Positions 1,276-1,954 of a stretch of DNA of 4,361 nucleotides are shown here, in pieces. Positions within the stretch are counted from its first letter, which is position 1. Every line of letters begins with the position of its first letter. Origin of the DNA: Escherichia coli (GTDB lineage Bacteria > Pseudomonadota > Gammaproteobacteria > Enterobacterales > Enterobacteriaceae); assembly GCF_003334335.1 (NCBI RefSeq), contig NZ_QOWQ01000079.1, one strand, 5' to 3'. The position numbers and the translations under genes are program-made. Under the pieces are notes generated by a model. The model was not told the origin of the DNA and made no database searches. It saw only the letters and a list, made by a program, of their open reading frames with translations.

Positions 1276-1541
1276 GCTGAAAAAGAAAACATCAGATGGT
1301 TAGTCGGGTATCAGTTATCTGGTGAAATTTTTAAATACCTCACAATTCAGGAAGGTGATTATTGTTTTTCTGGTGGGGAATTTGTTAAAAATCACTCCGC
1401 ATGATGAATCCCCCTAAGCGGTGGGGCGACTGGCAAGGCTCCATTACGATGGTCACAATCCGCAGATTTAGTTTGCCAGGCTGAATCTACCGGGAGGCAC
1501 CCGGCATCATGCATAATGTGGAAAATTGGAAATGTATTCAG

Positions 1542-1573
1542 GCCTCTACGAATTTTAGTAGAGGCTTTTTTTT
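1542..1573 (+). terminator. Strong intrinsic terminator (copy A)
   Basis: Perfect 8-bp stem GCCTCTAC/GTAGAGGC (1542-1549 / 1558-1565) with an 8-nt loop, followed by T8 (1566-1573). Confidence 0.8.
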
Positions 1574-1577
1574 GAGT

Positions 1578-1604
1578 AAAAAAAGCCCGTCTATGGCAGC
1601 GGGC
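1578..1604 (-). terminator. Intrinsic terminator for leftward transcription (copy A); with 1542-1573 forms a back-to-back bidirectional pair
   Basis: A7 (1578-1584) followed by hairpin GCCCG...CGGGC (1585-1589 / 1600-1604). On the - strand this reads as hairpin plus U7. Confidence 0.5.
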
Positions 1605-1954
1605 AAGTATGCATGAGAATACATTTTTTATTATTTGCCTGAAAATAGTACCCTGAGGTTATTGTTGTTTTCAACAGGCTGATTTGTGTTCTGATCGGGG
1701 ATGTGACAAGGAACATACGTTCTTATGTGAAAATGTTAAATTCTTCACATTTCAGTGAGTTGAGTGTTGATTTCGTTTTATCTTTTTTGTTAAAAAAGTA
1801 TTGCATGGTGAATCCCCCTGTGCGGTGGGGCGACTGGTGACAACAATTCATCATCCGTGATGACCCAGAAGAGATCGCGGGTTCAGTGGCACCGGGCTGA
1901 ACTCACCGGGAGGCACCCGGCACCATGTTCATGGTGATACAGAAATGCGGCTTC

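Follow-up and report, generated by a model that had tools for sequence, protein, structure and literature searches.

Box E2 of a lambdoid prophage in Escherichia coli: very probably the 3' boundary of the structured 5' domain of STnc100 small RNAs rather than a translation start

Introduction

Does a Shine-Dalgarno (SD) sequence followed by an ATG in the intergenic region of a prophage mark a site of translation initiation, or can the same letters be accounted for in another way? The question is raised by box E2, an element that occurs once in each of two duplicated modules upstream of the esterase gene nanS-p, in a 4,361-nt stretch of Escherichia coli DNA (RefSeq assembly GCF_003334335.1, contig NZ_QOWQ01000079.1) that is here called the window. 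Both copies read ACCGGGAGGcacccggca(t/c)cATG (1489-1511 and 1905-1927), and the list of open reading frames (ORFs) confirms that the two ATGs (1509 and 1925) each open an ORF of 35 codons with the peptides quoted in a first-pass annotation of this DNA. That annotation took box E2 to be a copy of the translation-initiation context of nanS-p, and named a translated leader or upstream ORF (uORF), a ribosome-binding decoy and a chance GGAGG inside a structural element as possible readings, while doubting that the two ORFs are conventional proteins.

The analysis presented here leads to another answer. Box E2 is very probably the place where the structured 5' domain of a prophage small RNA (sRNA) of the STnc100 family ends on its 3' side, and not a translation start. 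STnc100 is an already known RNA, and the 35-codon ORFs are by-products of it, not genes. In the intergenic region of a prophage, the look of an SD, an ATG and an ORF can be fully explained by RNA structure.

Box E2 is composed of two helices of STnc100

A scan against Rfam matched both modules to RF02076 (STnc100), copy 1 at 1369-1577 with 122.1 bits and copy 2 at 1773-1985 with 147.2 bits. The gathering score of the model is 47 bits; both matches span model positions 1-206, and both copies are full length. In the RF02076 consensus, one helix is formed by GcaUGGUG and CACCAugC and another by CCGGG and CCCGG. The second of these helices is P4, and the CACCAUGC that follows it forms the first, P1, with GCAUGGUG at the 5' end of the RNA. 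P4 directly abuts P1 with no spacer, and the apparent initiation signals fall on the two helices: each ATG (1509-1511 in copy 1, 1925-1927 in copy 2) lies inside P1 as three consecutive base pairs of that helix, and the 'SD' is made of the 3' end of the 5' strand of the P4 stem (GG) and the first three nucleotides of the P4 loop (AGG). P4 is the 5-bp CCGGG/CCCGG hairpin that the first-pass annotation had pointed out in the first module; it is present there, with a twin in the second (Table 1).

The two copies of box E2 differ only at t1507 versus c1923, and this difference is compensated by A1404 versus G1808. In copy 2, CACCAUGU (1921-1928) pairs with GCAUGGUG (1803-1810) as P1; in copy 1, the minimum-energy and centroid folds both reproduce P1, P3 and P4.

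Covariation supports the helices and a pseudoknot

These helices were compared in 58 distinct homologs, collected with search patterns that left box E2 unconstrained. One set of homologs consisted of 118 IMG/VR copies retrieved with a pattern for the P2 box, in which the P1 5' strand was unconstrained as well. A second set consisted of at least 24 copies from genomes of other Enterobacterales (E. albertii, Superficieibacter, Enterobacter, Citrobacter, Kosakonia, Pantoea and others), retrieved with a pattern that fixed only the last two bases (TG) of the P1 5' strand. This genome-collection pattern, TGAATCCNCCN{2,6}GGNGGGGC, was loose and yielded mostly chance matches, so that the taxonomic range is undersampled; the true homologs were recognized with nhmmer, and the 23 that were used all score above the Rfam threshold (59.6-138 bits).

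Helices P1-P4 are formed and supported by covariation. Across the 58 homologs, 94.6% of the cells of these helices are paired, compared with 39-49% after sliding of the partners. Changes on both sides are seen in 16 of the 26 pairs, and none of 500 shuffles reached any of these measures. Five of the eight pairs of P1 have changed on both sides. At the position of the ATG, the pair that includes the A is U-A in 53 homologs and C-G in 3, the pair that includes the T is A-U in 37 and G-C in 17, and the pair that includes the G is C-G in 37 and U-A, A-U or G-C in 10. All eight pairs of P3 show changes on both sides, P2 is paired in 94.5% of its cells with one compensatory change from C-G to U-A, and P4 is paired in 100% of its cells with two compensatory variants, UCGGG/CCCGA and CUAGG/CCUGG.

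The comparison also brought to light a pseudoknot, in which the P3 loop is paired to the strand that follows P2. In an untuned alignment it is paired in 84% of cells, with four of six pairs changed on both sides; a self-complementarity of at least 5 is found in 38 of 43 sequence types, versus 34% with mismatched partners. The strands in other genera include UUAACC/GGUUAA, GCCACAA/UUGUGGC and CUGGCUG/CAGCCAG. The pseudoknot is absent from the RF02076 consensus structure as printed by cmscan, and on comparison with that printed consensus this covarying element of STnc100 may be undescribed.

In the arrangement that we propose, the RNA would start at the first base of P1, a helix whose 3' strand would pair with the transcript's first 8 nt, and P1 together with the abutting P4 would close a domain of ~110-125 nt holding P2, a variable arm, P3 and the pseudoknot. 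The 'ATG' is made of three pairs of P1, which in the E. coli lineage happen to read AUG, and the 35-codon ORF appears because no stop happens to occur in that frame for 35 codons. This 5' domain would sequester the 5' end and stabilize and scaffold the sRNA; target pairing and Hfq binding would reside in a swappable 3' cassette, composed of the variable stretch and then the U-tailed terminator, as the analogy with PasD, an sRNA of enteropathogenic E. coli (EPEC), suggests.

The ATG and its frame are not conserved

If box E2 were a translation start, the ATG and the frame that it opens would be expected to persist among homologs. A sweep of all loci with nhmmer gave 200 STnc100 copies, 95 of which are unique. 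An ATG stands at the homologous site in 71 of the 95, all from E. coli phage contigs or E. albertii, and is missing in 23, mostly from other Enterobacterales, in which the helices are intact; ACA, ACG, ACC, AUA and other triplets replace it there, mostly with the pairing of P1 kept. The first-pass annotation had named homologs that lose the ATG or the frame and keep the hairpins as a finding that would refute its proposal. Such homologs are what this comparison found, with the ATG lost by compensatory changes, and this finding together with the unconserved frame and length argues against the translated leader or uORF.

Read from the ATG, the ORF measures 1, 2, 7, 19-49, 68 or 69 and more codons among the unique copies, and the equal length of the two ORFs in the window, which had been presented as a shared feature, is a coincidence. 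Intact copies with an early stop read ATG-TAG (locus L007) or ATG-CAA-TGA (loci L037, L059, L006, L020 and L099). After the terminator, a tract of six, seven or eight A residues leads to the same downstream DNA being read in all three frames, and the N-termini of the peptides are unrelated between seed classes. In a first sample, frame 0 seemed to be always open through the terminator, a signal that was gone after the ATG-TAG, ATG-CAA-TGA and 7-codon copies had been added. Both ORFs of the window do cross terminator-like hairpins (1540-1567 and 1955-1974 in a terminator scan), as the first-pass annotation had described, and its doubt that they are proteins proved well placed: ATG, frame, length and peptide are all unconserved in homologs.

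The predicted structure is also unfavorable to initiation. The SD and the AUG are 11 nt apart, and the first two Gs of the SD are paired, as is the AUG, which has an unpaired probability of 0.00 in copy 1 and of 0.03, 0.12 and 0.66 for its three bases in copy 2. The predicted cost of making the ribosome window accessible is 19.3 kcal/mol in copy 1 and 18.1 kcal/mol in copy 2, versus 7.8 kcal/mol for nanS-p. A conserved start, a conserved frame, length and peptide, and an accessible ribosome-binding site with the usual spacing are all absent from box E2. RefSeq annotates no coding sequence between the tRNAs and the esterase gene, and the exact copy 1 peptide is absent from a collection of 15 billion proteins. 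Three peptides were looked up, two of which occur as isolated 'hypothetical proteins' and are as such uninformative: a variant common among the homologs, and the copy 2 peptide, which bears that label in a single NCBI record. The box E2 ORFs are unsuited as candidates for small proteins or uORFs.

The likeness to nanS-p is limited to a 9-mer

The first-pass annotation had derived its reading of box E2 from the start of nanS-p. The 9-mer ACCGGGAGG occurs exactly three times in the window, always on the plus strand (1489-1497, 1905-1913 and 2194-2202), against an expected count of 0.01 in 200 dinucleotide shuffles of the window. Two of these occurrences are explained by the homology of the duplicated modules, and the third, at nanS-p, is by itself a possible coincidence. 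Nothing else aligns: GGAGG and ATG are 11 nt apart in the modules and 4 nt apart at nanS-p, where the start string extends from 2192 to 2209 and not from 2193 as first given. Esterase leaders in the fetched loci also vary in this place, the commonest allele being GCCGGGAGGATTCATG, that of the window lineage ACCGGGAGG, and others GCCGGGAGG, CCAGGGAGG, CACGGGAGA, CACGGGAGAAATTCG, GGCAGGAGAGG and GGTGGAAAG among further ones. As these alleles vary and the match is short, the identity of the 9-mer is lineage-specific; it is either chance or a remnant, and box E2 is not a transferred copy of the nanS-p initiation context.

A nanS-p leader that is a degraded third module was considered as well and gained no clear support, the similarities being short and out of register and no third Rfam match appearing at E <= 1. 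Separately, the 5' box of the sRNA, AUGAAUCCCCC (1404-1414), was seen to be complementary at 10 of 11 positions to GGAGGAUUCAU (2198-2208) in the SD/start region of nanS-p. This complementarity is not kept in the esterase allele beside PasD2 in EPEC E2348/69, and it may be due to chance.

Alternative explanations

Several points weigh against box E2 as a purely structural boundary. The ATG is almost always present within the E. coli lineage, and in strain EDL933 6 of the 11 STnc100 copies lie above the RIBOseq value of 0.355 that was used as the line for a 'candidate for translation', with values up to 3.21 (PMC5331693). The minimum-energy fold of copy 2 swaps most of P1 for a local hairpin, CACCAU/AUGGUG; GGGAGG, and with it P4 over its full length, hardly changes in sequence from genus to genus, beyond what a stem needs; and 1399 and 1803 are putative rather than mapped 5' ends. 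The RIBOseq values (0 to 3.21) are given per transcript, not per start codon, and are ambiguous; ~45% of the annotated noncoding RNAs in the EDL933 study also exceed 0.355, including RyhB, OmrA/B, MicA and CyaR (PMC5331693). From the fold of copy 2 it would appear that its P1 may not be formed all the time. A class-specific alternative structure was noted at 1921-1936 of this copy, where the P1 3' strand CACCAU can pair with AUGGUG (1931-1936), a downstream repeat of the 5' strand. The near-invariance of P4 is not explained by a scaffold and suggests that this hairpin makes a sequence-specific contact, be it a tertiary one or one to a partner.

An RNA of dual function, or a translated leader, would make use of the AUG whenever P1 opens, and a ribosome moving through the terminator would then allow readthrough to nanS-p and the lysis genes or would produce a small peptide. 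This reading can draw on the ATG in 71 of 95 unique copies with its perfect GGAGG upstream, on a frame that is open through the terminator in most of the classes that bear an ATG, on ribosome-coverage values of 0.58-3.2 for several EDL933 copies, and on PasD2, which also has GGGAGG-N4-AUG and a 14-codon ORF. Yet the PasD2 ORF ends before its terminator, and comparable RIBOseq coverage is found on many bona fide sRNAs. The ATG has been lost by compensatory changes in 23 unique copies with every helix kept, stops occur at codon 2, 3 or 8 in intact copies, and with these early-stop copies included the 'always open' signal vanished; the frame after the terminator shifts with the length of the A-tract, and the peptides are unrelated between classes. 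When the 11-nt spacing, the paired AUG and the opening cost of 18-19 kcal/mol are also considered, use of this AUG in translation appears very improbable.

The SD itself, rather than the ATG, is central to another explanation, in which the GGGAGG of P4, together with the G-run of P2, would act as an SD mimic or decoy that binds the anti-SD of 16S rRNA, a CU-rich partner or a protein, the 5' domain being a ligand-binding module. Only three of the five SD bases are exposed, the other two being locked in an all-G-C stem of 5 bp that is 100% paired. What speaks for a decoy is that ACCGGGAGGCACCCGGCA hardly varies among the 58 distinct homologs, which come from several genera, while neighboring stems drift, that the motif's A, G and G have an unpaired probability of ~1.0, and that the 5' strand of P2 resembles an anti-SD (CCCCC in STnc100, CCUCCUU in PasD2); tertiary contacts in a pseudoknotted fold could equally give the invariance, and we consider the decoy improbable. 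With respect to a chance GGAGG inside a structural element, as the first-pass annotation had phrased it, the structural part holds and the chance part does not, as the GGAGG belongs to the nearly invariant P4.

That CCGGG-N5-CCCGG acts as DNA, as an operator palindrome for a dimeric protein or as a recombination linker between phage modules, is extremely improbable. The inverted repeat is a perfect 5+5 and nearly invariant, and the symmetric variant TCGGG/CCCGA (locus L135) would keep the DNA palindrome too. The variant CUAGG/CCUGG (locus L196), in contrast, pairs only by way of a U-G wobble and not by DNA symmetry, the element lies in a transcribed domain in which P1, P3 and the pseudoknot covary as RNA with many G-U pairs, and the palindrome shares its constraint with the A beside it and with the 3' strand of P1. 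It is enticing to speculate that the 5' domain of STnc100 and PasD is a dedicated ligand-binding module for the 30S anti-SD or for a host or phage protein, with the nearly invariant GGGAGGCA hairpin stacked on P1, and that in the E. coli lineage the opening of P1 might expose the AUG and thereby couple ribosome loading to terminator readthrough into nanS-p and the lysis genes; we nonetheless regard such a module as unlikely. A tRNA-like element was rejected. P1 and P4 have the size of an acceptor and T-arm, but the calls of ARAGORN and of the tRNA model are limited to the three real tRNAs; a T-loop has 7 nt, and the P4 loop here has 5 nt.

Box E2 as the 3' end of the STnc100 5' domain has consequences for work on the family. 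STnc100 is abundant in pathogenic E. coli: EDL933 has 11 copies, and a copy lies directly downstream of stx2B. The closing helix on the first 8 nt, the nearly invariant P4 and the pseudoknot define which nucleotides can be mutated in a compensatory manner and which cannot, and the covarying pseudoknot and invariant P4 of the STnc100/PasD family are observations worth keeping.

Organization of the two sRNA copies

The features of the two copies are collected in Table 1. Each copy would have its own sigma-70-type promoter, predicted from the sequence, and its own intrinsic terminator. The promoter-like elements share an identical TTTGTTAAAAA in both modules, and their -10 elements end 7 nt before G1399 (copy 1) and G1803 (copy 2), the residues at which the 5' ends are placed by likeness to PasD2. 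Variation between STnc100 copies is concentrated in the swappable cassette of seed and terminator. The hypervariable single-stranded stretch of copy 1 (1513-1539), which has its equivalent in copy 2 at 1929-1954, would be the target-pairing (seed) region, to judge by analogy with PasD. As for the expression of STnc100 in other strains, STnc100_4, one of the EDL933 copies, was detected by Northern blot (PMC5331693), and in Salmonella STnc100 has been shown as a representative multi-copy sRNA with an RpoD and RpoN binding pattern (PMC10794520, Fig. 6D).

Table 1. Coordinates of the features of the two modules and of the nanS-p start in the window
Feature	Coordinates	Strand	Details
STnc100 sRNA, copy 1	1399-1575	+	Putative 5' end to U-tail; RF02076 match
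STnc100 sRNA, copy 2	1803-1981	+	RF02076 match
Box E2, copy 1	1489-1512	+	A1489; P4 CCGGG 1490-1494, loop AGGCA 1495-1499, CCCGG 1500-1504; P1 3' strand CAUCAUGC 1505-1512
Box E2, copy 2	1905-1928	+	P4 CCGGG 1906-1910, AGGCA, CCCGG 1916-1920; P1 3' strand CACCAUGU 1921-1928
P1 5' strand, copy 1	1399-1406	+	GCAUGAUG, first 8 nt of the RNA; pairs with 1505-1512 in minimum-energy and centroid folds
P2 hairpin, copy 1	1411-1426	+	CCCCU 1411-1415 / UGGGG 1422-1426; Rfam consensus structure
Pseudoknot 5' strand, copy 1	1430-1435	+	CUGGCA; complementary to UGCCAG 1474-1479 in the P3 loop
Pseudoknot, copy 2	1834-1895	+	CUGGUG 1834-1839 pairs with CACCGG 1890-1895 in the P3 loop
P3 hairpin, copy 1	1464-1488	+	AGAUUUAG 1464-1471 / CUGAAUCU 1481-1488
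P3 hairpin, copy 2	1879-1904	+	GGGUUCAG 1879-1886 / CUGAACUC 1897-1904
Promoter-like element, copy 1	1362-1391	+	-35 TTGTTT 1362-1367, 18-nt spacer, extended -10 TGtTAAAAA 1383-1391; read from the sequence
Promoter-like element, copy 2	1767-1796	+	-35 TTGATT 1767-1772, 18-nt spacer, TGtTAAAAA 1788-1796; read from the sequence
Variable single-stranded stretch, copy 1	1513-1539	+	Unpaired in the fold; hypervariable between homolog classes
Terminator, copy 1	1540-1575	+	Stem-loop 1540-1567, then U-tract; terminator scan and fold
Terminator, copy 2	1955-1981	+	Rho-independent; stem-loop 1955-1974; terminator scan and fold
35-codon ORF, copy 1	1509-1616	+	35 aa; judged spurious; frame and length unconserved
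35-codon ORF, copy 2	1925-2032	+	35 aa; judged spurious; frame of the tail set by the A6/A7/A8 tract
nanS-p ribosome-binding site and start codon	2192-2209	+	cgACCGGGAGGattcATG; only the 9-mer in common with box E2

Prophage context and further sRNA loci

At 99.9% identity, the window matches a lambdoid prophage of E. coli JNEC-KY176, in which the order is rusA, a DUF1133 gene in the position of Q, a small ORF, a DNA methylase gene, three tRNA genes, two STnc100 copies, the SASA esterase gene (nanS-p), holin and lysozyme; both sRNA copies thus lie in the late/moron region of a lambdoid prophage. Copy 2 is ~92% identical to the STnc100 copy found 75 nt downstream of stx2B in Stx2a phages. In the Stx2a phage LC567818 the order is the same, with stx2AB where copy 1 lies and a 159-bit STnc100 match 75 nt after stx2B, an arrangement that agrees with PMC12370729. 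The window is an stx-negative relative of the Stx2a phage arrangement. Copy 1 and its partner (window 1240-1780, compared with 1084-2488 of locus L244) fill the slot that stx2AB occupies between the three tRNAs and the second STnc100. One of these tRNAs, at 986-1061, is called tRNA-Met (CAT) by ARAGORN and tRNA-Ile by RefSeq; we take it to be the usual ileZ-type tRNA of Stx-like phages, with a CAU anticodon modified to read AUA.

Other sRNA-related loci were encountered along the way. In the source prophage, locus L001 holds a hok/sok locus with a weak isrK-like match (4660-5074). Within the window, a weak Esr41-like match (23 bits, E 0.36) lies on the minus strand at 4195-4269, with a minus-strand terminator just past the stop of nanS-p; PasA/PasC stand at the equivalent position, after the esterase, in EPEC, and by this analogy 4195-4269 is probably another prophage sRNA gene. 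Superficieibacter electus carries tandem STnc100 arrays, with three copies 257 nt apart in locus L136 (1237-1932) and further copies in L135 (9779-11404 and 6178-6378), and each copy in an array has a different 3' seed cassette. A subtype of STnc100 in which P1 is GGUGAUG/CAUCACC is found in Enterobacter sp. Bisph1 (L130, 604-781), in Kosakonia cowanii (L190, 2901-3095) and in a further locus (L238, 643-827), with an STnc560 match ~1.1-1.4 kb away. The L130 copy lies downstream of what appears, by eye from the ORF translation, to be the end of dcp, and the locus of this subtype is possibly chromosomal and not part of a prophage.

Comparison with known systems

Lambdoid phages code for other structured and terminated RNAs to which the modules of the window can be compared. 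Like STnc100, the put RNAs of phage HK022 are structured RNAs of a lambdoid phage in which the 5' region of a transcript is folded. They are ~70 nt long with two stem-loops, putL just downstream of PL and putR ~270 nt downstream of the PR start (PMC9378689). STnc100, in contrast, has a closing helix, four arms, a pseudoknot and a domain of ~110-125 nt, and it lies in the late region. A put-like antiterminator was excluded on this difference in architecture, and on a scan of HK022 27.6-38 kb that found no RF02076 match at E <= 5.

The leader RNAs of PR', lambda 6S and StxS (PMC7547250), resemble STnc100 as short terminated transcripts of lysogens that come from the late region. They differ in position: lambda 6S and StxS start at PR' right after gene Q, whereas the STnc100 copies lie ~2 kb further on, past the methylase gene and the three tRNA genes. 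A PR' leader or Q-utilization site was ruled out for the modules; the DUF1133 gene in the Q position has a leader of its own with promoter- and terminator-like elements (L001, ~7400-7520), which is probably the real late promoter with tR'.

The convergent sRNA pairs described at the moron site of lambdoid phages (Tree et al. 2014, PMC4104026) offer a closer parallel to the modules as a whole, each of which consists of a plus-strand sRNA followed by a convergent minus-strand unit with a promoter-like site and a terminator. As in those pairs, the modules are located between the late promoter region and a conserved phage ORF further downstream. The minus-strand unit of module 1 (~1638-1581) has a promoter-like TTGAAA-18-TACTAT (1674-1645) and a terminator stem at ~1607-1587 with a T-run to ~1580; that of module 2 (~2046-1988) has TTGCGC-18-TATTAT upstream of ~2046 and a terminator at 2013-1992, and by eye it is ~90% identical to a RIL-seq candidate of EPEC in the E2348C_1409/1408 intergenic region. 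An identity of these units with AsxR or AgvB was rejected, neither of the two Rfam models matching them at E <= 1.

Relative to STnc100 as modeled in RF02076, the window copies share the P1-P4 architecture, the terminator and the late-region/moron site of a prophage, and they differ in nothing essential; copy 1 has another seed/terminator cassette and the P1 variant GCAUGAUG/CAUCAUGC. PasD2 of EPEC E2348/69 stands where copy 2 does, directly before a sialate esterase gene, from which PasD2 is 87 nt away. It shares the 5' end, GCAUGGUGAAUCC..., and the overall plan, with the seed between the closing helix and the terminator. The P2 helix of PasD2 is CCUCC/GGAGG, its P4 region is shortened to GCGGGAGGCGCC, and its AUG follows GGAGG by 4 nt; its score against RF02076, 41.4 bits, is below the threshold. 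In the PasD2 locus (L122, 2158-2329), GGGAGG-N4-AUG opens a 14-codon ORF (MRTSLVLFLLSFSL) that stops inside the seed, and P2 is CCUCCUU/GGAGG, the 5' strand of which we take to be the anti-SD sequence at the 3' terminus of 16S rRNA. The 5' end of PasD2 was estimated by RNA-seq as the G of GCAUGGUG (Pearl Mizrahi 2021, PMC8550237, Table S6, Fig. S5). The same study found the stability of PasD to be Hfq-dependent, and placed the PasD seed UGUGAG in the stretch equivalent to 1513-1539 and the RIL-seq chimeras of PasD1 in the last ~50 nt of the RNA (PMC8550237). A common ancestor of PasD and STnc100 has been proposed (Zhu, Shabalina and Storz 2026, bioRxiv 10.64898/2026.05.13.724894).

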